Positions 3,723 to 56,923 of a stretch of DNA of 58,613 bases are shown in pieces (position 1 is the stretch's first letter; every line of letters starts with the position of its first letter). The DNA is from a virus (Duplodnaviria; Caudoviricetes). Below the pieces are notes generated by a model. It worked only from the letters and a program-made list of their open reading frames with translations, was not told the origin of the DNA and searched no databases. The stretch is from positions 1-58,613 of the IMG/VR virus record IMGVR_UViG_3300030102_005973, one strand, 5' to 3'. A program made the translations under genes and the position numbers.

Positions 3723-6700
3723 TTACTTGTATAAATCTTCGAGAAGTTCTTTCTCAATATCTTTAATTTCTTTTTCTAACTTTTTTATTTCTGGATCCTG
3801 CTCTTCTGCTTTTATTTCATCATATAAGTCTGGAAACAGCATCTTTAGTTCTTTATCAGCAACCCTTGAACTTCTTTGTCTTTTTTTCCTGCCCTTGATA
3901 GCATACTCAGAGAAGTTAAATAACCTGAGAATAGCCTCACCCATATCTTTTGAATCTAAAACCTTACTGTAGTTATTAACTAACTTTTTTACTGTTAATA
4001 AAGGCAGTCCAGAAGCTTGAGCCAACTCAAGGTAAAAGTCATTCATGTACTGAGCTTTCAACCGAGGATCTTTGGTACGTTCGGCTTTATTAAACTTCTC
4101 TGTCACCGCTTTTGCAATAGCCAAAATACCAACATCTTTACTTGCCGTCCATGGTTTACCAGTAAGTTTATCTCCTAAAGTAGTAAAAACTTGTCCCCAA
4201 ATAAATATAGCATTTAGATTTCCTATTATAGCTGCTCTCCACAAGTCTTCGTCATCATCATCTCTAAACTCTCTTAAAAGCCCAGGAAGTCCTAGGGTTA
4301 CATATTGGAATAACACAGGCATAAATATGTGATACATAACAAATGTACGTATGTTTTCGCCTATAGTTCCTTTGCCAGCCTGGCGATCCCAAGCTAAAAG
4401 CTTTCTATTCAAGGCCCTAACAGCTTGGATTTCCTTTCTAAAATATTGTTTTGGTGTTGTTAAGAACATGTTAGCGGCTCTTGTAAGCGGTCCTTTTGTT
4501 TGATAAAAGTCCTTATCTTGAAGGTCGCTCGACTGCTGGGTTCTTTTTGTATCCCTTTCAAACTTTATAATTGCATGATCAATGGCTTCTTGTTCAGTTG
4601 CGTTAGGATTATTCTTTTTAAACTGATCTTTGTAATAAGAATAGTTTGGAGCTCCCCCTAACATTATCGCTGTCCGGTCACCCACTATAACTTGTGCCAT
4701 TAAAAAGTTTACAATCCAATCTTTAGTTCTTGCACCTAGTGGTAAAACTTTGTTGGCTTCGTTTTCACTATAGTTCTCTATTTGTCTTAATATGGAATTG
4801 TTGTTTCTATCCTGCATGTATACAGAATTATCCCTAATTTCTTTGAACACCTGGAGTTGTTGGCTTTTATTTTTAGCAGCATATTTAAGCCAATTAGCTA
4901 TGCCTATGTCATTAGCATATGTAAATAATGAGGTTAACTGCTTGATCATAATCACCGGAGAAATACCCAGTCTTGAAATCAAAAAGGCTGTATTCAAACC
5001 ATCTAAAAGAGGTGTGTAATAACTTTTTTCCCTACCTCGGCTCGCAATCTTTTTAATGGCATCGTCTATTAAACTATTTATTCTCTGCCCATGTATATTT
5101 CTTATTGCATCTTTGATATACTGGTTGGTGAATAGTTTGTTTATATCTCTAATAGCAGAAGAATATGCAGCAAAATACTCCATGTCATCAATGTAATTTG
5201 TAAGTGCAGTAGTTCCGTCCGTATAAATTATTTTCTTATTATTTCTGCTCCTAGCTTTAGTGGAAGCCGAACCAACCGCAGTTTGCATAATTCCTTGATC
5301 ACCAAGTAAATCTAACTCATTAGGAGCAGTTCCTTCTCTTACTAAATAACCTGCATAATATTTATTCATCGGCAGGTCAGTTCTATATATTTTCTTATAA
5401 GCTTCGTTGTAATGAGTGTATAAGGTTGGATATAAAACATTGACTTGCCAGTCGGCAAACCTTTTTAGGTCAGGATCAATGTAGTTTTCAATCTCTTCCA
5501 TGATCCTATCAGTTTGTTCTCCATACATAGCTTCAAAAGCACCCCTGTTAGCAGGATCTTTAAACTGATTGTACATGTAGTACAGTTGATTTTGAGACTG
5601 ATATATTTCCTCTTCGTCTATAATGTTATCAACCTTCTGTTTCTTATCTACACTTGTAGGGTCTTTTTCATATTCTTGTTGCGCCTTAGCAACTCTCTCT
5701 GGGTTTTTATATATACCTGTTGCTTCAAGTTGACTAAACTGTTTGTTTCTTTTTCTCCAGTTAGCACCTAAATAGTTGGCCATTTCTTTATCCAGCAACG
5801 TAGACAATACCAGTCTTCTTTTTTTAAACTCTCTTGAAGCTGCATCTATTTTATCAGTCACCAATACTTGAGCTCTACCACCAAACAGCTCCCCTGGTAA
5901 AGAAGATATTCTATCCATCAAGCCATCTAAAGCCTCCTGCGATCCAAAGAAAAAATTATCAATCTCTCGCATAATATTTCTTACTAATGTGGCTGCCCTG
6001 TTCTTAACTTTTCTTCGGTTAGTTGCATTGTTACGCGCAAACTTTTCGTTTTCAAGCTGTTCATTTAAGTCTGGGTCGTCCAGATTTAATTTATTGCCTG
6101 TTATGTCGTAGTAAAGTTCAGCAAATTGTCTTCGATATTCTTGCGCTTGAGATTCAATCTGGGCTTTGAGAACCGATCGACCAAACTGAACCATACCAGA
6201 TAAGGCATCAAAAGCCTGATCTAACATCAACGTTTTGTTTGCATCTGTGTTTTCTAGAAGGGAAGCATTGTTTAGATTTATAGCTATTTGAAGATCTACC
6301 ATCTTGTTAACAACAAAAGGGTCTTGATTAGGGTCTTGAGCTAACTCTAAAAACTCTCTGTTCAAAGCTTCGTTCTTATCAGATATTTCCTCCTCTGTAG
6401 CTGTCGGTGGCAGAACATTATTAGTTATAGCTTCTATCCTTTTTCTAGTGTCTAGATCAATTTTTATAGCTTTTTTTCTGCCACTTACTAAAACCTCATA
6501 TTTACCGGTAAGGATTTTATTGATTTGATTTTGTAGAGCAACGTTATTCTTAGCCGTGGCTAAGTCTATAACCTCCTCCATTATGTTTTCAATATTAGCA
6601 TTGGTAGCCTGCTCAATCTTTTGAACTAGTTGCAACGCCTCCTTTTTGGTAAATATCGCAGGTGGTAAAGTCTTTCGCATGAAGTTACGCAGCTCTCTCT

Positions 6701-9700
6701 TGACCTTTTGCAAATCCCTTTGACCCTTTGATCTAGCTCTGACAAGAGCTCTGGCGGCTCTAATTTTAATTGCTATGTCTTTAGTTGGCCTCTGGTTTAG
6801 TGTCTTTTGCAGATCTGAAAGCATCAATGCCTGTTGTGTAGACAAAGTTTTTCTGGCTTTTGCTTCACCTTTTACCTTATACGTATCGGCTTCGTTTTTA
6901 TATTCGACTTGATTCTCTAAAAACGCAACAGCCTTATCCATGATTTGGGCGTCGGTCAATTTATTTTTTCGTCGATTGTTTAAGTTATTTTCTTTTTTGA
7001 TCAACGATTCTATCTTGTTGAAGAGTTTTAGACCAGCTTTAGCCCCTCCTTTTATATTTTTAAAACTCTCTGGCAGGGCTCCCAGTATCTCTGAGTCTAA
7101 CCCCATGAGCTCTTTTATATCTTTAACACGAAGCTTTTGTACACGTTTAAGATAATCAACAATCAATTCATCTCTAAAGCCAGCTTCTCTTCCTTCACGA
7201 ATATAATCAGCCGGCGTTCTTTGTTGTCTTCTTCTAGTGGTCTGAGCAAACGGGTTGAACTTTCTTCCATCACGTACAAGAAACAATCCTCCTCCTCTAC
7301 CAAACTGATCTTCTCTAGCTCGTCTTGCTTCTAACCCGAATGGAGCTACAGCTTTACGCAACTGTGACAGGTTCGCGGTCTTGGGTATAAAGCCTTGGTT
7401 GTCCATATTATACTGCTGGGCCACCTGCTCTATTGTCCTTTGTTGTCTTCTTTGAGTTTTGTACGAATCAATGTTGAGATTTAAAAGAATAATTTCACTA
7501 GTAGTTCCGTCATCAAATTGAGTAACTATTCCATCGTATCCATCAGCTTTTAAAGATTCCGTTAATTGTATCCCTTTTTGGTTATTATATTTTTTAGACA
7601 AATTTCGTTTATATTCTATAAGAGTATCGTCAGTAATTTTAATAACTAAGGGGTTTTTTATTTCAATTTGACCTGATTCAAATCCTTGCGGTATAAATCC
7701 CTCCTGAACCTCTGTGACATAAATACCTGCAGGTTCAACGTCTTGCCCAAACTCTGACCCTCTATCTAAAGCTTTTTCTGTATTTCTTTTATAAGTAAAA
7801 TTAAAAGGTTTACCAGTTTGAATTTTTTGCTGTCTTCTTTGTCTTGGAGATATTTCTCGAATACCTGAACCATATGGAGCTACTGCCTGAGACTTTTCTT
7901 GTTGTGTAAGTTGTTTTTTATACTTATCAACCATCTCTTGAGGCATAATGTCAAAAGCATCTACCTTGACATCTGGCACTCCTAACACCTCTCCTAAAAC
8001 TTCATTGTTATATGTAGAATGCTGTGAACCATCTCGAGCTGAAGTGGGTTTAATAACTAGCATTACATCATTTATGTTAAAATCATTTGCCTTATAAAAT
8101 CCATCGCGTAAATCGTTCGGGTTTATAAAACCATCTTTTGATTTTATAAGTTTGTGGAACTCCGTATTTGGCGTACCCTGTTGGTCAACCACAGCGTTTA
8201 AAAATGCTTTTCTTTGTGGACTATCTCTGAGAGCTTCCCAGCTATCAAAATTATTTAAGACGTCTCGTATAGCTTTTACAGGGTTTGTAGCCAATGCATC
8301 AGCCTTAAATGTATCATAATCTCCAAGTTTACTTATAAATACATCGTAAACTTTTTTATTAAACAGCAGGCTACGTTCAGGAGAACCACTTATAATAAAC
8401 AAATAATCTGCGAGATTTATATTTTTTTCAATAGACTTTGTAGATTTTGAGCTTGCCCATACCGCCTCACCATCGAAAGCATAGCTTGGACCAGCGTCAA
8501 GTTGGATGCCTTCAAACTCTCCTAAACCTAACTGATCAGCTACCCAAAACCAAACCTTTTCTTTTTTTGCGTTGATGTCCTCTATTAAAGACATGATATC
8601 AATTCTTTTGTCGGGGGTGACAAGTGACAACGGATATGACTCCTCAAACTCAATTTGCTGCCTTGGCTTTGGCACTCTTATTTCTGTAGGGTCTCCTACC
8701 GGATTTGTGCCATCTTCTAAAATCTCAACATCACCCTCAGTAATCTCTTCTCCTGTCGTAACTTTTGTTGATAAAGTATTTAATAAATCAATTACATCGT
8801 TGTCGGTTTTTGTAAACTCTGTTAGATTAAGATCAACACCTAAAGTTCTAGCCAAGTCCTCTATAAATTTTATAACAATATTCTTTTGCGGTTTGGTCAG
8901 TGTCTGATACTCAGAAGCCATTATTCCAATAAGCTCTGCAAGCCTCTCTTCGTTCTGCAACTCGCTTACATCCTGGTATGATTCTGCAAACGTGTCTATC
9001 CTTCTAGCCAGTTCGCTATCGTTAGATAAAGTTTTGCGAACAGACATCATCATTTTTTCAGCAACCTGAGCTGCTTTAGGATCTGTCTTAATTTTACTTA
9101 AAAATACAGCGTGAAAAACCTCGTGGGGAACAGTGGTCCCAGTGGCTTTTGACAGATTTATATGTATGGTATCGCCAATAAGTTCACCTCTTCCTGGAGC
9201 AGCAAACTTTAAGTATTCCGATTCATTCTCATGTATTACAATTCGAGTGTTAGGTAGGAGATTTTTTATAGCACTTGCCGCTGTTCTGGCTATTTTAGTG
9301 ACGTTGTTTTCTCTTTGTATTTGTTCTGCACCTTTTTCAACTGTTTCACCTGCTCTATTTACACTTAGATTAGACTCCACTGTTTCGGTGGTCTCTTCTA
9401 CTTCTTCTCCAAAAAATGCATCAATATCTTGTTGTTCCTCCGTAAGCTGAGTCTCTGTCTCTACTTCCTGCTCTTGCTCTTCAACAAAGTCTGGAATAGG
9501 TTCTTCAACCGTCTGCTCCTTAGTCAAGACTTGTTCTATTTGATTGTCAATCTGTTGTATTTGTTGATCAATATTACCAACAGTTGCTGGGTCTTTGTCT
9601 GCTTTTTCATTTTGTAATTCTTGCTTACTTGCTAAAAGACCTAATATTTGTTGTTGCTTTTCAAGACTTATGTCTGTTGGTATTTGATTGGCTAAACCAG

Positions 9701-11630
9701 CTGCCTTGTCAAAGTTTTCTAATTCATTTTGTGCCTCTTCCTTTGTAAGCTCACCCTTTTCAATCCTTTGTTTCTGCTGTTGGACAAATGCTTTTTTGGT
9801 AAATCTATCATTTCGAATGTTTAAAAACATTTTTAAAACCTCCTTATCAACCCTAGTGAAATCTTTTTGAGCATAAGCATCACTGATAGCTGGCAAGGTT
9901 CCCAGCACAAACCCGCCTACAGCCTCTTGACCAGCTGCATAGGCTATCTCACTTAATATCTCAGTTACACCTTCAGGTGTTTGAAAAAGATCTTTTCCTT
10001 TTAAAGATTCAAACAATTCTTTTCCACCTATGTCTGCAGCCTCTTGAAAAGCTCCTGTTTCTGCTTCAGCTAAAGCAGCAGTGGTAAATCTGGATCCAGC
10101 CCTTCCCAGTTTGCTTTTTATTTCATTTCTAATAAAATCATTTAACACTGATGCATTTGCATTTGTTGGAACTTTTTTAGCTACATTAAATAATAATCTT
10201 TTTACTAAGGAACTATTACCTAAAACGTTTCTAAAACCAAAATTTTCTAATTGTGCTATAACAAGTGATAAAGGCACCTTTAACAACGCCTTTTCATCTT
10301 CTGTTAAATCAAGGTCCTTGAACTCCTCTTGGTATTGTGAATTGACTTGAGCAAATAATGCTGGTATCCTAACAAATTTACCTCCTGGAGCAAGTAAAGC
10401 TGGTAAGCTACGGGCTAATCCTAAAAAGGCACCAGGAAAAAACTTCTGCTGTTGGGCCATCATCCATTGTTCAGAAACATCTTTACCTCCAAATGTTTCA
10501 ACAAAAAACTCTCTTATCGGAGGCAACACTTTTTCTTTAAACTCTTTTTTTCTTTTATCAGAGGCTATTTTTTCTTCTTCCGTCATTTCACGTCTTGGAA
10601 CTTTACCCCCTATGTCTATTGCTAAATCAACTATACCGGCTGGTATTTCTCCTACACCTCTTAAAAAACTATCAACAAGCCCAGCCGCCATTGATCCTTG
10701 GCTTCTTTTCATGTCGTAGTATTCGCCAACAGCGGCATTTAATTGCTTTTCTCTAAACTCAAAGTCTTTATAATAGTTTTGTATTTGCTGATAACTCTTG
10801 TTAAGACGGATCATTTCTTGATTATACTTATCTATACGATCCTTTTGCGCCCTTCGTTGCTGTTCAGATAATGCCTGTAAAGCCTTGCCTTCCTCTTCCA
10901 AAACACTTTGTTCATATAGATAATTGTTTAGATTTTTTGAAAAGGAATTAGCTTCTTCATTCAAAGCATCCATTCTTTCTTGAATCTCCTTTTCGTTCTC
11001 AAAAATCATCTTTTTGTAATCGTACTTCTCAATAGCTTTGTTTATCTGAAGCGTGTCTTGCTTGTTGGCATCGATAAACTTATTGAGCCTATCCCTTTCT
11101 TCCCTGTTTTGAGCTGTTGTAAATGCATCAAGACCTATTGTAATGGTTTCGTTGTTAGGCGCAGTAACCTTTACATTGTCAGTAAGGCCTGTTTCTTCAA
11201 AAACAAAACCATCATTTTTAAATTTATAGTTGAGTTTAGGAAGAATAAACTCTTCATCCTTGCTTATTTCCTCTAAAGTAACAGGTAAATCGGGATCTTC
11301 TTCTGGAATTATCTCGGTTGTTTCAACTACAGTTTGAGTTTCAACCTCAGGTTGGGTATCAATTTTTGGGGCTTGGATCGTAGGTTGCGCCAAAGAACCA
11401 TCCACCAATTGTAATTCCGTATCTTCTTTTTTTTTTGGAGGCTCTACGATACCCATCAGGGATTGAAAGTCTTGTAGGGTGCCGCCATATCCATCATTCT
11501 TAAACAAGCCATAAGAGTATTCCACAGCCTCTGGATTCTCTTTTAATAAAGCGCTGTATTGATCTTTACTTCCAGTGTATCCGTCGTTTTGAAATAGTCC
11601 AAAAGAATATTCTAAAGCCTCGTCTTCCAT
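3723..11630 (-). CDS. Giant ejection / polyvalent virion protein (2635 aa) with zincin-like and ADP-ribosyltransferase-like domains
   Basis: Last gene of the internal-virion block; HEVFH at about 9111-9125; GIYVT...NPLVI...LKADGYDGIV...EII segment at about 7457-7824. Confidence 0.7.
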   Translation of the reverse strand: MEDEALEYSFGLFQNDGYTGSKDQYSALLKENPEAVEYSYGLFKNDGYGGTLQDFQSLMGIVEPPKKKEDTELQLVDGSLAQPTIQAPKIDTQPEVETQTVVETTEIIPEEDPDLPVTLEEISKDEEFILPKLNYKFKNDGFVFEETGLTDNVKVTAPNNETITIGLDAFTTAQNREERDRLNKFIDANKQDTLQINKAIEKYDYKKMIFENEKEIQERMDALNEEANSFSKNLNNYLYEQSVLEEEGKALQALSEQQRRAQKDRIDKYNQEMIRLNKSYQQIQNYYKDFEFREKQLNAAVGEYYDMKRSQGSMAAGLVDSFLRGVGEIPAGIVDLAIDIGGKVPRREMTEEEKIASDKRKKEFKEKVLPPIREFFVETFGGKDVSEQWMMAQQQKFFPGAFLGLARSLPALLAPGGKFVRIPALFAQVNSQYQEEFKDLDLTEDEKALLKVPLSLVIAQLENFGFRNVLGNSSLVKRLLFNVAKKVPTNANASVLNDFIRNEIKSKLGRAGSRFTTAALAEAETGAFQEAADIGGKELFESLKGKDLFQTPEGVTEILSEIAYAAGQEAVGGFVLGTLPAISDAYAQKDFTRVDKEVLKMFLNIRNDRFTKKAFVQQQKQRIEKGELTKEEAQNELENFDKAAGLANQIPTDISLEKQQQILGLLASKQELQNEKADKDPATVGNIDQQIQQIDNQIEQVLTKEQTVEEPIPDFVEEQEQEVETETQLTEEQQDIDAFFGEEVEETTETVESNLSVNRAGETVEKGAEQIQRENNVTKIARTAASAIKNLLPNTRIVIHENESEYLKFAAPGRGELIGDTIHINLSKATGTTVPHEVFHAVFLSKIKTDPKAAQVAEKMMMSVRKTLSNDSELARRIDTFAESYQDVSELQNEERLAELIGIMASEYQTLTKPQKNIVIKFIEDLARTLGVDLNLTEFTKTDNDVIDLLNTLSTKVTTGEEITEGDVEILEDGTNPVGDPTEIRVPKPRQQIEFEESYPLSLVTPDKRIDIMSLIEDINAKKEKVWFWVADQLGLGEFEGIQLDAGPSYAFDGEAVWASSKSTKSIEKNINLADYLFIISGSPERSLLFNKKVYDVFISKLGDYDTFKADALATNPVKAIRDVLNNFDSWEALRDSPQRKAFLNAVVDQQGTPNTEFHKLIKSKDGFINPNDLRDGFYKANDFNINDVMLVIKPTSARDGSQHSTYNNEVLGEVLGVPDVKVDAFDIMPQEMVDKYKKQLTQQEKSQAVAPYGSGIREISPRQRRQQKIQTGKPFNFTYKRNTEKALDRGSEFGQDVEPAGIYVTEVQEGFIPQGFESGQIEIKNPLVIKITDDTLIEYKRNLSKKYNNQKGIQLTESLKADGYDGIVTQFDDGTTSEIILLNLNIDSYKTQRRQQRTIEQVAQQYNMDNQGFIPKTANLSQLRKAVAPFGLEARRAREDQFGRGGGLFLVRDGRKFNPFAQTTRRRQQRTPADYIREGREAGFRDELIVDYLKRVQKLRVKDIKELMGLDSEILGALPESFKNIKGGAKAGLKLFNKIESLIKKENNLNNRRKNKLTDAQIMDKAVAFLENQVEYKNEADTYKVKGEAKARKTLSTQQALMLSDLQKTLNQRPTKDIAIKIRAARALVRARSKGQRDLQKVKRELRNFMRKTLPPAIFTKKEALQLVQKIEQATNANIENIMEEVIDLATAKNNVALQNQINKILTGKYEVLVSGRKKAIKIDLDTRKRIEAITNNVLPPTATEEEISDKNEALNREFLELAQDPNQDPFVVNKMVDLQIAINLNNASLLENTDANKTLMLDQAFDALSGMVQFGRSVLKAQIESQAQEYRRQFAELYYDITGNKLNLDDPDLNEQLENEKFARNNATNRRKVKNRAATLVRNIMREIDNFFFGSQEALDGLMDRISSLPGELFGGRAQVLVTDKIDAASREFKKRRLVLSTLLDKEMANYLGANWRKRNKQFSQLEATGIYKNPERVAKAQQEYEKDPTSVDKKQKVDNIIDEEEIYQSQNQLYYMYNQFKDPANRGAFEAMYGEQTDRIMEEIENYIDPDLKRFADWQVNVLYPTLYTHYNEAYKKIYRTDLPMNKYYAGYLVREGTAPNELDLLGDQGIMQTAVGSASTKARSRNNKKIIYTDGTTALTNYIDDMEYFAAYSSAIRDINKLFTNQYIKDAIRNIHGQRINSLIDDAIKKIASRGREKSYYTPLLDGLNTAFLISRLGISPVIMIKQLTSLFTYANDIGIANWLKYAAKNKSQQLQVFKEIRDNSVYMQDRNNNSILRQIENYSENEANKVLPLGARTKDWIVNFLMAQVIVGDRTAIMLGGAPNYSYYKDQFKKNNPNATEQEAIDHAIIKFERDTKRTQQSSDLQDKDFYQTKGPLTRAANMFLTTPKQYFRKEIQAVRALNRKLLAWDRQAGKGTIGENIRTFVMYHIFMPVLFQYVTLGLPGLLREFRDDDDEDLWRAAIIGNLNAIFIWGQVFTTLGDKLTGKPWTASKDVGILAIAKAVTEKFNKAERTKDPRLKAQYMNDFYLELAQASGLPLLTVKKLVNNYSKVLDSKDMGEAILRLFNFSEYAIKGRKKRQRSSRVADKELKMLFPDLYDEIKAEEQDPEIKKLEKEIKDIEKELLEDLYK

Positions 11631-47088: not shown

Positions 47089-47311
47089 TAGTAAATGGTT
47101 CATCATGTATAAGCATAGTATAACCCGCGCGTTTGTCGTAGTATATCTCACTATCTTTCTCGATAGCTACAACTTCAGTACCTATTGCAACGATCCTTCC
47201 CTTCTTATAGCGAAGTTGGTTGGCGTCTTCAGCAGAAAGCAAAAGTCCCGATGAGGTTTTAAGCTCCTCATCAATAGTTTTTATTACTACATATTTACCG
47301 ATTGGTTTCAT
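47054..47311 (-). CDS. groES: Co-chaperonin GroES
   Basis: KPIG..V.I...T.SGLLL...G.IVAIG...II.E.DI; overlaps the groEL stop. Confidence 0.85.
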   Translation of the reverse strand: MKPIGKYVVIKTIDEELKTSSGLLLSAEDANQLRYKKGRIVAIGTEVVAIEKDSEIYYDKRAGYTMLIHDEPFTIIRESDIVVVV

Positions 47312-48900
47312 TGGCTATCATATGTACGCGCCATAGTTACAATGGCGTTGGTTGATAATATTGAAACTGCCACAGATACAGCATTTTGAAGGGCAGTACG
47401 TGTAACTTTAAGCGGGTCTATAATTCCCATCTCAATCATATCGCCGGTTTTCCCAGTTTTTACATCAAGCCCGTGGCCTGTTTTATCTAAGAAATCAGGC
47501 GAAAAATCACTTCCAGCGTTTTGCAGTATCTGAGTCATAGGCGCTTGCAGCGCCTCCATCATGATCGCGTAAGCGATCGATTTTTTATTTTGATATTTTA
47601 TATCCTCAGCGGCCTCCCATAGTGCAAGCCCACCACCTGGCAGGATACCCTCAAGTAGTGCTGAACGAACCGCGCATACCGCATCATCAACCCGATCATA
47701 TAGCTCTTTCTGTTCTAGGTCAGTGTTACCACCTACGTTTATTACACCTATTCCACCGGTTAGTGACGCTATTCTAGACATAATAAAATCTTTGTCAGCC
47801 TTTTTAGTAGTTATCTTATGTGCATCCCACAGTTCTTCAACTCTTTTGTCAATGTCATCTTGACGAACTTTGTCCTCATTTTTTAGAATTATAGTGCTAT
47901 CTTTCCCCACTATTACCTTTGATGCTCTACCGAGATCTTTGAAAGTCATAAGACTTAGGTCATCACCTGTACTTTCAGAAAAATAAGTAGCACCTACCGA
48001 AAGAGCGATGTCATGCATCAGCTCGTGGCGTTTGTAACCAAAATTGGGAGGTATAATGGTACAAAGTTTCAGATTGTTCTTCATGACGTTTGCCGCCAAC
48101 GTGTTTGTTACGTTTTGAGAACACGGTGCTACTATTAATAGTTTTTTGTTCTCAGCGATTATTGGCTTTAGAACATTCTCAATCGATAGAATATTATTTA
48201 TATCAGAGTCAGATACCAAGACATAGGCGTCCTCAAGTATACACTCATCCTTTTTGTGGTTGTTTATAAACAGGTGGCTTGAGTATCCGCGATCAACTTT
48301 TATACCCTGGGTAGTCTCAAATGTGGTATCAGAAGTTTGGCTTTTCTCAACCGTTACAATACCGTTCTTGCCAACTGACTTGTAAGTGTCCGCTATAATT
48401 TTCCCTATCTCACTGTCATTGTTTGATGATATGGTCGCCACATCCAAAAGCTTCTTCTCACTTACAGGCTTTGACTTTTTACGAAGTTTGTCAACCACCT
48501 TCTCAGTGACTTTGACTAGCTCTCTCAATATCTCAGTCTTGTTATCTTTTGGCCCGATCATCTGAGTACCATGATCGACAAGTGCCCTGGTAAGTACAAT
48601 AGCTGTTGTGGTGCCATCACCCGCAATACTAGCGGTTCGCTCCGCAGCCTCCTTCATCATTTGCACCGACAGGTTCTCAACTGGATCAAGAAGCTGGATG
48701 CTTTTAGCTACTGTTACACCGTCTTTGGTAACAGTAATCCCATGGGTGTGATTAGGTGACTCAATCAAAACAGTATTTCCCATTGGACCTAATGTACTGC
48801 CAACTGCGCTTGCTAATTTATTTATACCTGATGTAAGTTTGTCTCTGCCGTCTTTGCCAAAGTGCAGATCCTTTGGTGAATATCCTCCCGTTTCATTCAT
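47308..48900 (-). CDS. groEL: Chaperonin GroEL
   Basis: TLGP.G, TKDGVTVA, GDGTTT, DR.DDA, GI.PGGG, GIIDP.KV motifs. Confidence 0.95.
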   Translation of the reverse strand: MNETGGYSPKDLHFGKDGRDKLTSGINKLASAVGSTLGPMGNTVLIESPNHTHGITVTKDGVTVAKSIQLLDPVENLSVQMMKEAAERTASIAGDGTTTAIVLTRALVDHGTQMIGPKDNKTEILRELVKVTEKVVDKLRKKSKPVSEKKLLDVATISSNNDSEIGKIIADTYKSVGKNGIVTVEKSQTSDTTFETTQGIKVDRGYSSHLFINNHKKDECILEDAYVLVSDSDINNILSIENVLKPIIAENKKLLIVAPCSQNVTNTLAANVMKNNLKLCTIIPPNFGYKRHELMHDIALSVGATYFSESTGDDLSLMTFKDLGRASKVIVGKDSTIILKNEDKVRQDDIDKRVEELWDAHKITTKKADKDFIMSRIASLTGGIGVINVGGNTDLEQKELYDRVDDAVCAVRSALLEGILPGGGLALWEAAEDIKYQNKKSIAYAIMMEALQAPMTQILQNAGSDFSPDFLDKTGHGLDVKTGKTGDMIEMGIIDPLKVTRTALQNAVSVAVSILSTNAIVTMARTYDSQ

Positions 48901-48930
48901 AAAATTTAATTTGATTAGATTAGATTACCA

Positions 48931-48938
48931 CAAATATA
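48931..48938 (-). promoter_or_regulatory. -7 promoter element TATATTTG for groEL
   Basis: TAnnTTTG match. Confidence 0.6.
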
Positions 48939-48960
48939 AAAACTAAGTTGAGATTTTGCA

Positions 48961-49140
48961 AATGACAAAAATGTTGGTTTCTATCCGCTATACTTGATAT
49001 ATATATTTTCTTATTTTATTTATATTTTACTTTTCTCACGCGAGGATAATTAACATTTTCAACACTAACATTGATAATCAGTAAGTTAGATATAAAAAAA
49101 CAACACGTATTCAACACTGTTTGTGTTAATTATCAACACA
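48961..49140. other. Origin-like element A
   Basis: AAAATGTT (48968) and AACATTTT (49052) inverted repeat around an AT-rich core, plus several CAACAC repeats. Confidence 0.4.
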
Positions 49141-49254
49141 ACTACCTGTTTTGCCAATCAATAAACCAAATGAAAAAAATTATGATTAAGGTGATGTAAT
49201 AATCTTCTAGATGAAAATCCATATTTTCGACACTTTAGTGTTAATTTATGTAAC

Positions 49255-49282
49255 AAAAAAAAGGCTACAATTAAGTAGCCTC
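49255..49282 (-). terminator. Rho-independent terminator
   Basis: AGGCTAC/GTAGCCT stem plus T run on the - strand. Confidence 0.7.
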
Positions 49283-49312
49283 TTTCTCAAGATAATTAAC
49301 CAACTAAAAAAA

Positions 49313-49531
49313 TTATCCAAACAAATCTCTTATTTCATCACGCATCTTTGCGCGCTCGATACCATCAGATATCATTTGTACTGCCTGATCTTGCTTCATC
49401 CTCTTCTTCGTTACAGCAGCCATCTCCAATCCAGTCATCGCATTTGGACGATCATTAATTAATCTTCCATTCATAACATATAGTCCCTCGACCATGTCAC
49501 TCTTTTTTCTGTCTCTACTTAATTTTTTCAT
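49313..49531 (-). CDS. Hypothetical protein
   Basis: ORF track; followed by a terminator. Confidence 0.6.
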   Translation of the reverse strand: MKKLSRDRKKSDMVEGLYVMNGRLINDRPNAMTGLEMAAVTKKRMKQDQAVQMISDGIERAKMRDEIRDLFG

Positions 49532-49670
49532 AACCTTTTATTGTTATACTTATTAATCCAATATAAATAACTAGCTCTGACCAGTTGTGATACTTATCCC
49601 TTTCGAAATACGACCAGCCTAAAGCAAATCCTACTCTGAGCCTGTTGTATAATTCTAGAGTATAAGTCAT
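49515..49670 (-). CDS. 51-aa hypothetical protein, first gene of the - strand arm
   Basis: Hand translation MTYTLELYNRLRVGFALGWSYF...; -7 element just upstream. Confidence 0.55.
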   Translation of the reverse strand: MTYTLELYNRLRVGFALGWSYFERDKYHNWSELVIYIGLISITIKGYEKIK

Positions 49671-49675
49671 TACCC

Positions 49676-49683
49676 CAAAGATA
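49676..49683 (-). promoter_or_regulatory. -7 promoter element TATCTTTG (near-leaderless transcript)
   Basis: TAnnTTTG match 5 nt before the ATG at 49670. Confidence 0.6.
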
Positions 49684-50062
49684 CAAATTATTTAGATACA
49701 CGGAACCATTGTATTATACTACGTGTGTCAGGCAAACTGCACAAAAAAAAACTCAAAATTTTTTCGGGGGGTGGGGGTCGCATTGCGTCTCGCATCTCAG
49801 ATTTTTTGTCGTTTTATCTGCAACCTTCCCCTGCCAACCAAGGGTCGACCAGTACAGGATCAAACGTTTTACGTTTATTCCTCGCAAAGTTTAAGAAAAA
49901 ACGAACGCTCACTTCGTTCGCGTAATCCCTCCAGAAAGCAAATCAAAGTCTAATTAAAATAGGAAAAATCGAATCAAGGGATCCCTTGTTCCCTCCGTAG
50001 GGGATCCCATGTTCAGATTGGGAACAAAAACTATCCCCAACAAACAAATATTTTCATGAGCA

Positions 50063-50097
50063 TTTGATGATATTCTCATTATTATTTCATATATTTA
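50063..50097 (+). promoter_or_regulatory. Putative early promoter (TTTG ... TATATTTA)
   Basis: -33-like TTTG at 50063 and -7-like TATATTTA at 50090-50097, before the first + strand gene. Confidence 0.5.
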
Positions 50098-50101
50098 CAC
50101 C

Positions 50102-50491
50102 ATGAGAGACAAACAACATACTGAAATCAAACGTAACTCACTCACTCTCAGTGAGTTACCTAACTTAAACCCTATAAAAATGAAAGCAAAGTATTACTAC
50201 ATTGATTATTCAAGTGAAACCAAAACTTATGACGTCATAGATTGTACTGATCCAGTTGACCAACCAATTGTTGGAAGTTTTGCTTATGAGGAAAATGCAA
50301 TCAAATTCCACCAAAAATTAAGACGCAATGAAGTATGGAAAAGAATGATATCAAAGATGTCAACAGAAGAAATTCAAACAAGATGCATTTTAGTTACAGC
50401 GTCACAAAAACAAGGTTTAGGTGATTCGGAAGAAAACGATACTTTTTACAATTTGTTAAATCACGAATATCACCTTAGACTTGAAGATTAA
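50102..50491 (+). CDS. Early hypothetical protein (start may be MKAKYY at 50180)
   Basis: ORF track; its stop codon lies inside hammerhead stem I. Confidence 0.55.
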   Translation: MRDKQHTEIKRNSLTLSELPNLNPIKMKAKYYYIDYSSETKTYDVIDCTDPVDQPIVGSFAYEENAIKFHQKLRRNEVWKRMISKMSTEEIQTRCILVTASQKQGLGDSEENDTFYNLLNHEYHLRLED

Positions 50492-50539
50492 CTGATGAGG
50501 ATTCAATATCCGAAACTATCCGAAAGGATAGTCTTAATC
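50486..50539 (+). ncRNA. Hammerhead ribozyme, type I
   Basis: Stem I GATTAA/TTAATC; CTGATGA; stem II GGAT/ATCC; GAAA; stem III CTATCC-GAAA-GGATAG; GTC cleavage triplet at 50531-50533. Confidence 0.9.
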
Positions 50540-50556
50540 AACAAAAATTATTAATT

Positions 50557-51510
50557 ATGAATAATCAAGACAAAATTTACAAAAAGGTAAATGACATCGT
50601 CCTAAAGGGACTGAAAAAAGACGGAATGAAATGGTTCATGCCATGGAAATCGGGTGATGAAAATCAACCCATGAATTATAACTACAAAACCTACTATCGT
50701 GGTTTCAATGTGTTTATGCTTAACGCAGTTATGATGGAGCAAGGATACGAGCATAACCAATGGATCACACTAAAGAAATGTAAAGAGATTGGTGGATCGA
50801 TCAAGGATGGTCAGTTTGGCAAAACTACTGATGTGTTCAAATGGAACGTAGGTTATTATGATATCAAGAAAAAATGCTATGTGCCAACCAAGGATTATAA
50901 GAAGATCAATAAATCAGAGGAAATTGTAATTGATGGTAAAATCCAAAAACGTTACAGAACTACATTCTCTATTAGATATTGGCAAGTCTATAACATTGGG
51001 CAATGCAATGGCATTGAGCCAATCGTATTTGATCAGTCTGAGATCACCAAGGTGAATGAGCCAATCAAGGATGCTGATGATCTTGCGAAAAGCTATGTAG
51101 ATCGAGATGGTAAGCTAAGACTTGAACATCTACGTGATGGTGCATTTTACAATGTAGCTAAAGACATGGTCAATATGCCTAAACTTGAAACGTTTGTGGA
51201 CTCTGATTCGTACTACAAAGTGCTTTTCCATGAGCTAGCCCATTCAACTGGACACAATGATCGAATGGATCGTAAAAGTCTTACAGAAGTCTCCTATTGG
51301 GGTGATAACACCTATGCCAAGGAGGAACTGGTCGCTGAGATATCTGCGATGTACATCTCAGGGATGTTGGGACTTGATCCGAAAGACTCTGATCAGAATA
51401 GTGTGGCCTATATCAAAGGATGGTGTAAACACCTAAGCGATAAGCCGAAAGAATGCCTATACGCCATGCAACAAGCTACCAAAGTGGTTGCCTACATCCA
51501 AGGTAAATAA
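50557..51510 (+). CDS. ardC: ArdC-like antirestriction protein (ssDNA-binding domain plus zincin-like domain)
   Basis: W..PW, Y.G.N...L, W.T...., HELAHSTGH, YAKEELVAE, S.AYI.GW motifs. Confidence 0.85.
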   Translation: MNNQDKIYKKVNDIVLKGLKKDGMKWFMPWKSGDENQPMNYNYKTYYRGFNVFMLNAVMMEQGYEHNQWITLKKCKEIGGSIKDGQFGKTTDVFKWNVGYYDIKKKCYVPTKDYKKINKSEEIVIDGKIQKRYRTTFSIRYWQVYNIGQCNGIEPIVFDQSEITKVNEPIKDADDLAKSYVDRDGKLRLEHLRDGAFYNVAKDMVNMPKLETFVDSDSYYKVLFHELAHSTGHNDRMDRKSLTEVSYWGDNTYAKEELVAEISAMYISGMLGLDPKDSDQNSVAYIKGWCKHLSDKPKECLYAMQQATKVVAYIQGK

Positions 51511-51554
51511 ATCCGGGATTGGATCATGGAGGGGATCGTTTCCCCTCCCCGGAT
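51511..51554 (+). ncRNA. tRNA-like minihelix (acceptor-like stem plus T-arm-like hairpin)
   Basis: ATCCGGG/CCCGGAT closing stem stacked on GAGGGG-ATCGTTT-CCCCTC. Confidence 0.45.
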
Positions 51555-51597
51555 CGACAATATTGTCATTAACTAACAACAAAAATTATTAATTATT

Positions 51598-52083
51598 ATG
51601 AAAATCAATTTTATTAAGTATGAACATTCCCACGGTGGTAGGGAAAAGTATTTTCCAGTCGGTAAGAAGAAAGATGGAGTTGGCGATTGTGTAATAAGAG
51701 CAGTCGCACTATCATTGGAAATGGATTACATGGAGGCTTTTAAAGATTTAATGGATGTCGCAGTTGAGAAAGGGATTCCTTACGCTAATAGTCAAAGGGT
51801 TTATGAGTCTTACCTAGATAACAAAGGATGGACTAAAAAATCCTTGAAACAAGGTAAGAGTTGGTTACCAATGTGGAAACATAAAAGGTTTTTAGATGTT
51901 AACAAAAACTATATTTTTTATGTTAGAGTTGGATTTAGGACACATCTTACATCAGTTGTAAAGGGTATTAATAAAGACACATGGTTATGTCAAGAAAGCA
52001 TGGCATATGCAATGTATGAAAGTCCATGTTTAAAGGGTCATCCTGAAACGCTTGATTGCGAATGTAAAAACGAGAGATCATGA
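51598..52083 (+). CDS. Early protein with GDCVIRA motif
   Basis: DC..RA...H....G...DTW pattern, possibly a Cys/His peptidase-like fold. Confidence 0.55.
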   Translation: MKINFIKYEHSHGGREKYFPVGKKKDGVGDCVIRAVALSLEMDYMEAFKDLMDVAVEKGIPYANSQRVYESYLDNKGWTKKSLKQGKSWLPMWKHKRFLDVNKNYIFYVRVGFRTHLTSVVKGINKDTWLCQESMAYAMYESPCLKGHPETLDCECKNERS

Positions 52084-52328
52084 AACAGAGACTATTGAAA
52101 TTTATTTGGAACACCTTGTCTAAAATGGACAAGGGAAGGATATGGGATTATGAATCTGCACCATATTGTGGTCATCATCATCAGGGATTTGAAAACAAGT
52201 ACATCTCAGAAAGCTATCTCGAAGGTGAAGGTGGAGGATTCTCAAAAGTCTCATTGTTGGGTTACATCATTGAGATGGACAATGTCTTCCAGTCGGGAAC
52301 AATGTATCATTTAGTTAAAAAGAAGTAA
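52080..52328 (+). CDS. Early hypothetical protein
   Basis: ATGA-coupled to the upstream gene. Confidence 0.55.
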   Translation: MKQRLLKFIWNTLSKMDKGRIWDYESAPYCGHHHQGFENKYISESYLEGEGGGFSKVSLLGYIIEMDNVFQSGTMYHLVKKK

Positions 52329-52355
52329 CCGATGTCAGGGAGGAGTAATCCTCCC

Positions 52356-52406
52356 TCTGTCGATAGGTGTGTGCCTATCCTGATGAGATCAAAAGGTCGA
52401 AACAGA
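52356..52406 (+). ncRNA. Hammerhead ribozyme, type III
   Basis: Stem III TCTGT/ACAGA; GTC triplet at 52359-52361; stem I GATAGGT-GTGT-GCCTATC; CTGATGA; stem II GATC-AAAA-GGTC; GAAA. Confidence 0.9.
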
Positions 52407-52428
52407 TTATTAACTAACAACAAAAATT

Positions 52429-52710
52429 ATGTTACATTCAAAATTCAGTTTATCATTTGATACAGATAATCAGATGGTATCGATTTACATTGGCTATGAA
52501 GATAAGTATGGAAAATCTTTCATTGCACCAACCTTTCATTTCAATGACTATGGTAAATTAATTATTCCTCCCAACACCGAGAGAGGATACAACAGGTCAA
52601 CCTTTAGCTATTTAGCAAGACACGTAAAAACTAAGGTAGCTGATTTCAAAAAACATATTGAAGATGAATATCTTCAAGAACTGATTATTAAGTTAGAACA
52701 ACAGATATGA
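52429..52710 (+). CDS. Early hypothetical protein
   Basis: Follows the shared leader. Confidence 0.6.
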   Translation: MLHSKFSLSFDTDNQMVSIYIGYEDKYGKSFIAPTFHFNDYGKLIIPPNTERGYNRSTFSYLARHVKTKVADFKKHIEDEYLQELIIKLEQQI

Positions 52711-52949
52711 AAACAATCGTAGACACAAAAGTGATTGAAAAAGCTATCTCCTATAAAGGGGATAGCTATATGGTATGGGAGTATACCAATGACAAGAGGA
52801 ACAAAGAGATAGCGATCATGGATTCGACAGGATATGATGTAAGTCTAATGACCAAAGTCATCGAGGATGGCGATGTGGAAACGGAGGTACATTTACATTG
52901 TCCTGATCCTGAAGAATACATACATGAACAATTTATAAACTTTAAATAA
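52707..52949 (+). CDS. Early hypothetical protein
   Basis: ATGA-coupled. Confidence 0.55.
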   Translation: MKTIVDTKVIEKAISYKGDSYMVWEYTNDKRNKEIAIMDSTGYDVSLMTKVIEDGDVETEVHLHCPDPEEYIHEQFINFK

Positions 52950-52950
52950 A

Positions 52951-53118
52951 ATGAAAGAAATAGAATTAGCGTTAAAATGGTTTGAAATGAATGACATTTC
53001 AGCATACATTACAGATAAAAATTTATATGTGGAAGTAAACCATGACACAACTATTCATATATCAAATGCTGAAATAAGTTATCGAGCAGGCTTGTATAAA
53101 ATACACTATGAAAATTAA
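52951..53118 (+). CDS. 55-aa early hypothetical protein
   Basis: Hand translation MKEIELALKWFEMNDISAY...; fills the gap between neighbours. Confidence 0.5.
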   Translation: MKEIELALKWFEMNDISAYITDKNLYVEVNHDTTIHISNAEISYRAGLYKIHYEN

Positions 53119-53296
53119 TTTAAAAATGAAAAACAATAACAACACTCCTGATGAGAATATCAGGGAAGAAAACGAAGAAAACAACTCAAAAATTGTATGG
53201 TATGATTTGTTTGTAGACTTTGTCTATGCAAAGAATCCAAGGATTTACAACGATGCGTGTGAGTACGCTGATGAGCAGATTAATATGTTTAAATAA
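53108..53296 (+). CDS. Early hypothetical protein
   Basis: ORF track. Confidence 0.5.
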   Translation: MKINLKMKNNNNTPDENIREENEENNSKIVWYDLFVDFVYAKNPRIYNDACEYADEQINMFK

Positions 53297-53303
53297 TAAT
53301 TTT

Positions 53304-53522
53304 ATGACTTTAATAGAATTACAAGAACTTGGGGAGTCGGGGGATCAAATCCTTCAACTCCTAAATGAAATCAAAACACTATCTTTGAAAGAGATCAAAG
53401 GTGAGGATTGGGATTTAGATTATATCGAAGATCAAGATGATAAGGAAGATTACCTCTCTGATACCTTTGATATGATAATCCAACTATTACCTAAACTAAA
53501 AGCAAAAGAGTATGTGTATTGA
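53304..53522 (+). CDS. Acidic early protein
   Basis: Likely start MTLIELQ; D/E-rich. Confidence 0.5.
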   Translation: MTLIELQELGESGDQILQLLNEIKTLSLKEIKGEDWDLDYIEDQDDKEDYLSDTFDMIIQLLPKLKAKEYVY

Positions 53523-54221: not shown

Positions 54222-54253
54222 AAAAACTATTTTTAGTTTTTGTTGTTTGTTGA

Positions 54254-54283
54254 GGGAGGGGCAGAAATGTTCCTCCTTTTTTT
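54254..54283 (+). terminator. Rho-independent terminator of the early operon
   Basis: GGAGGGGCA-GAAA-TGTTCCTCC plus T run. Confidence 0.8.
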
Positions 54284-56894: not shown

Positions 56895-56923
56895 AGGGGG
56901 AGTACAACTCCCCCTTTTTTTTT
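56895..56923 (+). terminator. Rho-independent terminator
   Basis: AGGGGGAGT/ACTCCCCCT stem plus T run. Confidence 0.85.

Follow-up and report, generated by a model that had tools for sequence, protein, structure and literature searches.

RNase III cuts the early mRNA of phage T7 between cistrons, so that the upstream message ends in a 3′ stem-loop. REP elements and the hairpins of the puf operon are G/C-rich stabilisers that follow a stop codon and act against 3′ exonucleases, the end itself being made by host endonucleases. RiboJ-type synthetic insulators combine a hammerhead with an added hairpin, making the expression of a cistron independent of its context. In prophages, hammerheads cluster around single genes, including ardA, and cleave in vitro and in E. 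coli; Perreault et al. (2011), in the part of that study used here, proposed that they process long phage transcripts (PMC3088659). The role of prokaryotic hammerheads was nevertheless still termed an open question in the part used here of a 2017 review (PMC6155905). In plant mitochondria, tRNA-like structures between coding regions (t-elements, tRNA punctuation) serve as processing signals, going by the part of the source used here (PMC1920247).

Here we describe a type III hammerhead that lies between two genes of a marine phage and is directly preceded by a hairpin (Table 1). The window (the whole stretch of DNA analysed, 58,613 bp) is an entire IMG/VR virus record and is estimated to be ~99% complete. 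Its primase/helicase has 63% identity to an uncultured podovirus protein and 43% identity over 55% of the query to Flavobacterium phages of the genus Elemovirus (~59.8 kb), so the host is most likely a member of Flavobacteriia. The type III hammerhead is contained in a block of small + strand genes that starts at ~49.2 kb. On the + strand, the only terminator-like hairpins with U-tracts 3′ of the three structured elements of this block are at 54252-54279 and 56895-56915, and the region from 50.1 to 54.3 kb therefore appears to be a single transcription unit, an early operon.

Table 1. Features of the operon around the type III hammerhead, in positions of the window.
Feature	Position	Strand	Remarks
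Type I hammerhead, complete	50486-50539	+	type I pattern; predicted cleavage after C50533
Type I hammerhead, parts	stem I 50486-50491/50534-50539; core 50492-50498; stem II 50499-50511; stem III 50515-50532	+
ArdC-like anti-restriction gene	50557-51510		23 nt 3′ of type I hammerhead; PHROG 7245; Pfam ArdcN and zincin peptidase domain
tRNA-like minihelix	51511-51554	+	right after ArdC stop; second of three gaps
Upstream ORF, 82 aa	52080-52328	+	no Pfam or PHROG family; stop TAA 52326-52328
Spacer, 8 nt	52329-52336	+	stop codon to hairpin; contains 5′ partner of proposed competing helix
Hairpin, perfect 8 bp, G/C-rich	52337-52356	+	GNRA-type tetraloop; -14.0 kcal/mol; no U-tract
Hairpin, parts	5′ arm 52337-52344; GTAA loop 52345-52348; 3′ arm 52349-52356	+
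Type III, stem III 5′ strand CTGT and cleavage nucleotide C17	52357-52360; 52361	+
Type III, stem I, 6 bp	52362-52367/52374-52379	+	6-nt loop, near-invariant in class
Type III, core strand CUGAUGA	52380-52386	+
Type III, stem II, 4 bp	52387-52390/52395-52398	+	AAAA loop
Type III, core GAA and stem III 3′ strand ACAG	52399-52401; 52402-52405	+	3′ strand includes A15.1
Leader, A/U-rich, unstructured	52407-52428	+
Downstream ORF, 93 aa	52429-52710	+	ribozyme body and 5′-OH predicted at 5′ end after cleavage

Three successive gaps of the operon each contain a structured element followed by a near-identical A-rich leader: the 22 nt at 52409-52430 recur exactly at 51568-51589, and a similar leader is present at 50540-50556. 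The leader thus stands, without a Shine-Dalgarno sequence, before three consecutive start codons; it may serve to initiate translation in the Bacteroidota manner, to join gene cassettes by recombination, or both. The upstream ORF has a homologue with 94% protein identity in contig L003 (the same contig as L124), the single close relative found through that ORF, and a search of viral contigs with the downstream ORF gave no relative. Searches of cultured-phage DNA gave no match with 51500-53500 and chance-level matches only with the 107-nt module. Elsewhere in the window, an ORF of 2635 aa lies within 3723-11630 (-) and has no Pfam family, and a GroEL-like chaperonin gene (PHROG 5725) is found at 47308-48900 (-). 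A G/C-rich segment at 49975-50030 (+), just 5′ of ORF 50102-50491, contains an 8-nt palindrome twice; its fold z-score is only -1.65, and an Rfam scan of 48900-50150 gave chance-level matches only.

With stems I and II closed by loops and stem III open, the motif at 52356-52406 (+) is a complete hammerhead of type III topology, and cleavage is predicted after C52361 (between 52361 and 52362). The defining residues are present: CUGANGA (52380-52386), GAAA (52399-52402), the A15.1-U16.1 pair (52360) and H17, which is not G (52361). U52356 can pair with A52337, closing the hairpin, or with A52406, as an optional extension of stem III, and the two helices abut either way. The Rfam model Hammerhead_3 (RF00008) is matched at positions 1-54 of 54 with 36.5 bits, with E values of 1.9e-6 in a scan of 351 nt and 7.5e-8 for the record. 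Core, stems and this match all bear out a sequence-only reading of the same DNA, which had described a complete type III hammerhead unlike the type I hammerhead at 50486-50539, with a GTAA-looped hairpin at 52337-52356 directly before it and a stop ending at 52328; every position it gave is correct.

The RF00008 score does not reach the gathering score of 48.5, which is why a gathering scan of the whole window gave no Rfam match; a whole-window Rfam scan by E-value did not report the type III hammerhead either. Two other records that match RF00008 are likewise below the threshold, with 45.4 and 36.3 bits, and the record of the closest relative gave no RF00008 match at E ≤ 0.01, the hammerhead there having been read by eye. 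The low score would be expected if the motif were an inactive relic or a chance match, and decay does occur in the relative L126, where one hammerhead has a changed core G and has lost a stem III strand. However, in the window all invariant core positions are intact and every stem pairs, the loops agree with the class consensus, and the E value for the record is that given above. In L003, moreover, the substitutions keep pairing: a U-G pair of stem II becomes U-A, and A to G at 52404 changes a U-A pair of stem III to U-G. We regard a relic or chance match as extremely improbable.

To collect relatives, viral contigs were scanned with a generic pattern for type III hammerheads, which occurs in at least 120 DNA stretches; the unique matches listed with sufficient flank number 120 and include that of the window. 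The sample is restricted to matches with UGUC and ACA in stem III, and many of its members are related to one another. Among the matches listed, 85 of 120 also have at least four closing pairs in stem I and at least three in stem II; the chance rate of both stems closing is, by our own estimate, roughly 0.1%. The window and the 28 listed matches with identical stem and loop lengths were aligned. In these 29 sequences 94% of the cells in stem columns are paired and 12 of 16 pairs are changed on both sides, with strong compensatory variation in each of the three stems and a covariation score of 0.739 compared with 0.193 for shuffled alignments. This score was reached by 0 of 500 shuffles, and slid registers scored 0.059-0.114, so that covariation in homologues, which had been put forward as a check, is indeed found.

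All six pairs of stem I are changed on both sides and are paired in 29/29 sequences, and three of the four pairs of stem II are changed on both sides. The filter used in selection acted on the outer pairs of stems I and II, leaving the inner pairs of stem I and the outer pairs of stem III unfiltered; these unfiltered columns are paired in 29/29 (12-21 and 13-20), 28/29 (3-51) and 23/29 (2-52) sequences. CUGAUGA and the conserved core are invariant in 29/29, the search pattern having fixed most such positions. Both loops are near-invariant in this group of listed matches, as expected for a loop-loop tertiary contact. The covariation and the core residues together indicate that the hammerhead is real. 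Judged by its sequence, it is a genuine hammerhead of the self-cleaving type and an ordinary member of a large phage family.

An unannotated type III hammerhead was also seen in a cultured phage, Flavobacterium phage vB_FspP_elemoE_10-3D (MT497078.1, 28912-28968, -). It scores 36.3 bits with RF00008, has the core CUGAAGA, and has no hairpin; it lies in a divergent gap, ahead of the gene that opens a leftward block. As a cultured phage-host pair, this phage could serve to test cleavage in vivo. In L126 a type III hammerhead near 4100-4160 is intact, and inspection by eye shows no evident hairpin abutting it.

The hairpin persists with different loops in L003 and L015, and L003, which keeps the module, forms seven of its eight pairs. 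Three of the 8 nt that follow the hairpin are U, which is not the U-tract of an intrinsic terminator, and a terminator scan whose 13 terminator-like sites include 54252-54279 and 56895-56915 does not list the hairpin. An intrinsic terminator was accordingly rejected as a reading of the hairpin. A Shine-Dalgarno role of the G-rich arm was also rejected, the host group seeming, by our own inference, to use A-rich leaders that lack a Shine-Dalgarno sequence, and an N4-like hairpin promoter was tentatively set aside because stems and loops are too variable.

We asked how often such a hairpin accompanies the ribozyme, calling hairpins on MFE folds of 45-50 nt. Among the matches listed, 46 of 84 type III hammerheads have a hairpin of -8 kcal/mol or lower ending at most 1 nt from stem III, compared with 54 of 806 positions drawn at random from these loci, and 38 of the 84 are without one. 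At this energy the distance between hairpin and stem III is 0 nt in 43% of the 84 listed matches, ≤ 1 nt in 55% and ≤ 3 nt in 60%. A register-tolerant definition finds the hairpin in 53 of 86 listed matches, the window and L003 included. The 40 nt upstream of the 84 listed matches form 58 clusters at 70% identity, of which 31 consist entirely of hairpin-bearing members, 24 have none and 3 are mixed; the 31 clusters imply that the structure recurs without a common sequence. Two single-linkage clusterings, one at 70% identity for hairpin and hammerhead together and one at 60% for the 40 nt upstream, were discarded, since nearly everything merged. In one group of 56-63 kb contigs (L005, L013, L026, L032, L057, L058, L060, L080 and L115) the hairpin is conserved in sequence (an arm core of 5 nt and a loop of 6 nt), whereas elsewhere hairpins are variable. 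The conserved form could mark a protein-binding site or reflect recent common descent.

A matched control compared stop codons that have a type III hammerhead in the next 80 nt with the stops of other ORFs of at least 100 aa, counting compact hairpins that start ≤ 13 nt after the stop. Such hairpins follow 39 of 55 type III-associated stops among the matches listed but 312 of 1373 other ORF stops, and at -12 kcal/mol the counts are 35 of 55 (again among the matches listed) and 153 of 1373. The enrichment over the matched post-stop baseline is thus ~3- to 6-fold among the matches listed. Post-stop hairpins are not rare in these contigs, at 23% in the matched control and 34.5% (219/634) in a looser control that it replaced, so part of the association may come from hammerheads landing behind pre-existing hairpins.

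The same baseline gives some room to the idea that the hairpin acts on its own, whether as a leaky terminator or attenuator, as a binding site for a protein or as part of a promoter, and is adjacent only through the compactness of the genome, and L071 and L101 are examples in which a true terminator, hairpin plus U-tract, lies directly before a hammerhead. The window's hairpin, however, has no U-tract and is unlisted by the terminator scan, while the phage's own terminators have long U-tracts, and loop sequences vary among close relatives. The 0-1 nt abutment and the enrichment among the matches listed also argue for coupling. An independent signal is, we judge, improbable.

Type I hammerheads behave differently. 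Among the 93 valid unique hammerheads listed by a generic type I scan, an abutting hairpin is found upstream of stem I in 2 and downstream in 2, the control being 47 of 884. Instead, stem I starts at the stop codon, -7 to +9 nt from it, in 54 of the 62 listed type I matches with a locatable upstream stop, that of the window among the 54. Among the listed type III matches, an upstream stop is present within 150 nt in 42 of 52 with a hairpin but in 14 of 33 without (Fisher p = 4e-4, although the matches are not independent). Spacing is also regular among the matches listed: between hairpin and C17 there is a tail of 4-9 nt, most often 5, the distance from stop to hairpin is 3-13 nt in 32 of 42 and 5-9 nt in 25, and in 39 of 50 the next start codon lies 10-31 nt beyond the ribozyme end. 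With 5, 8 and 24 nt respectively, the window is modal on all three measures. A spacing near 8 nt between stop and hairpin is, from the dimensions of the ribosome footprint, about the closest at which a terminating ribosome would not unwind the hairpin. We take the hairpin to be a genuine part of a recurrent module, specific to type III as opposed to type I hammerheads in the sequences compared.

The two topologies differ in what cleavage is predicted to leave on the upstream product. A type I hammerhead would leave its own stem III hairpin plus one nucleotide, while a type III hammerhead would leave only 4-5 nt of a stem III strand. Alone among the hammerhead topologies, type III would give an upstream product with no 3′ stem-loop of its own, and it is precisely there that the added hairpin is found. 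We consider it rather probable that the module is a constitutive punctuation site in which the hairpin caps the upstream product and probably also stacks on stem III. The polycistronic early transcript would be cut by the hammerhead after C52361, between the two small genes. The downstream message would be freed with a 5′-OH, the folded ribozyme body and the conserved A-rich leader, and the upstream message would keep the 8-bp hairpin near its 3′ end, followed by a 5-nt tail bearing a 2′,3′-cyclic phosphate. As type III cleavage would send the whole ribozyme body downstream, the hairpin would supply the 3′ stem-loop that the upstream product otherwise lacks, shielding that message from 3′ exonucleases. 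Since predicted cleavage is always 3′ of the stop codon, no non-stop message would arise. The proposal draws on the motif and the covariation of its stems, on the link with the hairpin, which runs through the class and is specific to this topology, and on the spacing and the place in an operon. A hairpin before type III but not before type I hammerheads fits what mRNA punctuation would require, and turns the role into a testable prediction.

Stacking of the hairpin on the short (4-5 bp) stem III is itself probable, given abutment without a linker. The hairpin might then be no more than a structural helper, stacking coaxially on the open stem III or shielding its 5′ strand, with no message-stabilising role. 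Nearly all detected hairpins do abut stem III exactly (the 0-nt class of the 84 listed matches above), and the open stem III is short, mostly 4-7 bp among the matches listed. But a folding insulator should also aid type I hammerheads, whose open stem I strand waits for ~45 nt, and only 2 of the 93 listed there have an abutting hairpin. Further, the presence of the hairpin tracks a nearby upstream ORF among the matches listed (42/52 versus 14/33), and the hammerhead of the cultured relative, in a divergent gap before a first gene, is without a hairpin. We find the purely structural reading unlikely, while noting that 3′ protection and a purely structural stacking role are inseparable from sequence alone.

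The sequence-only reading had also proposed that 52330-52338 could pair with 52357-52362 across the cleavage site, allowing translation-coupled on/off folding. In such a switch, the post-stop spacer would pair with the stem III 5′ strand and the cleavage site, and a terminating ribosome would melt this helix and free the ribozyme; a ribosome at the stop would, from the known size of ribosome footprints, cover the 8-nt spacer. A weak helix related to the proposed pairing does appear. The RNAfold MFE structure of 52320-52430 (-30.0 kcal/mol, z -3.67) replaces stem III with four pairs, G52331-C52361, A52332-U52360, U52333-G52359 and G52334-U52358, and the active fold lies 2.8 kcal/mol above it. 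The pairing as first drawn overlaps in part with the hairpin, whose first two pairs include A52337 and G52338, and the helix that is found has two G-U pairs among its four and contributes only -3.9 kcal/mol. Stem III is missing from the MFE of 55 of 86 class members among the matches listed, as the energy model ignores the tertiary structure of the ribozyme and hence its stabilisation, and an equal or larger gap between active and MFE folds is seen in 20 of 86 listed relatives.

Nor is there an excess of complementarity across the class. For 53 listed hairpin-bearing relatives with 10-nt flanks, the mean energy of the duplex between flank and cleavage site was -1.91, compared with -1.90 for permuted flanks (96 of 200 permutations at least as low); with 30-nt flanks it was -4.39 compared with -4.34 (121 of 300 at least as low, among the matches listed). 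The window was median in this test, 29th of 52 among the matches listed, and no conserved alternative helix excluding the catalytic stem was found. L015 has the stem I of the window and almost the same hairpin, yet its 10 nt before the hairpin differ in sequence; the flank of L003 is identical to that of the window and uninformative on the switch either way. With flank complementarity equal to that of permuted controls and the window unexceptional, translation-coupled folding finds no backing here, and we consider it very unlikely.

The constitutive punctuation proposed above can be set beside the elements in the other two gaps. The type I hammerhead contains the stop TAA of ORF 50102-50491 within its stem I. 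Rfam gave no match at E ≤ 1 in its region, and near-identical stems occur in viral contigs. The minihelix consists of a 7-bp acceptor-like stem (51511-51517/51548-51554), an 11-nt linker with GG and a T-arm-like hairpin (51529-51547), a design of a 12-bp coaxial helix with a T-loop and a GG-containing linker. It is followed by a small conserved hairpin (51556-51567) and then the A-rich leader. Rfam gave chance-level matches only for the minihelix, and ARAGORN detected a tRNA neither in the window nor in L124. Copies are present in L124 (~2887-2940 and 3914-3968) and in L125 and L126 (~4925-4980 and 5960-6015), where the T-loop is canonical and both helices show compensatory changes. The design is widespread in phage contigs: a scan (L257-L375) with the minihelix pattern gave 102 unique matches, 44 with both stems; in 26 of the 44 the two stems together have 12 bp, as long as the acceptor/T-arm stack of a tRNA, and for some matches the next long ORF begins a few to tens of nt away. 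In L268, the minihelix is preceded by a hairpin of the kind found before type III hammerheads in the 56-63 kb contigs. The minihelix is possibly a processing site for RNase P or RNase Z; no description of it was found in the literature searched on phage tRNA-like punctuation.

The slot 5′ of ArdC holds different elements in two relatives, a tRNA-like minihelix in L124 (2880-2960) and the type I hammerhead in the window (50480-50560). The proteins upstream of the slot have only their first 28 residues in common between window and L124, from which it follows that the element was moved as part of a mosaic block. Past ArdC, the proteins have only their last 17 residues in common. At 6585-6625 (+) in L126, an apparent decayed type I hammerhead follows a stop codon and precedes the usual leader; its stem II is the same as that of the window's type I hammerhead, but the essential G of the core has become A and stem III has lost its 5′ strand. 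It is conceivable, and we put it forward tentatively, that interchangeable post-stop cassettes punctuate phage operons, namely type I hammerheads, hairpins with type III hammerheads, and minihelices that recruit RNase P or RNase Z. If so, the swapping of one cassette for another in the same slot of close relatives would demonstrate a shared function. The apparent exchange of hammerhead and minihelix at one slot agrees with punctuation and suggests an alternative to self-cleavage that depends on host enzymes.

Among known systems, the t-elements of plant mitochondria, in the part of the source used here, parallel the neighbouring tRNA-like minihelices that share slots with hammerheads rather than the hammerhead itself (PMC1920247); cleavage by RNase P or RNase Z is putative here. 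The hammerhead has the same core, three-stem junction and open stem III as RF00008 and the prophage hammerheads in the part of Perreault et al. considered, and like those it belongs to an intergenic cluster in a phage operon, with an anti-restriction gene that is ArdC-like here and ardA there. The hairpin abutting stem III is a difference, being present here and unmentioned in that part, which leaves the supplementary figures outside the comparison (PMC3088659). No description of the hairpin-hammerhead module was found in the literature searched, again with the supplementary figures of Perreault et al. (2011) outside it, and both the type III-specific hairpin and the exchange of hammerhead and tRNA-like elements in one slot seem to be undescribed.

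Like the RNase III sites of T7, the module is intercistronic and would give the upstream message a 3′ stem-loop; here, however, self-catalysis is predicted in place of a host enzyme, with 2′,3′-cyclic phosphate and 5′-OH ends. With REP elements and the puf hairpins it shares a similar stem-loop and, prospectively, differential stability, but here the ribozyme is fused directly to the hairpin. In RiboJ the hairpin is downstream and serves the downstream gene, whereas here it is upstream and would serve the upstream gene, so that the module may offer a compact natural design to insulate both neighbours of a cut site in synthetic operons.
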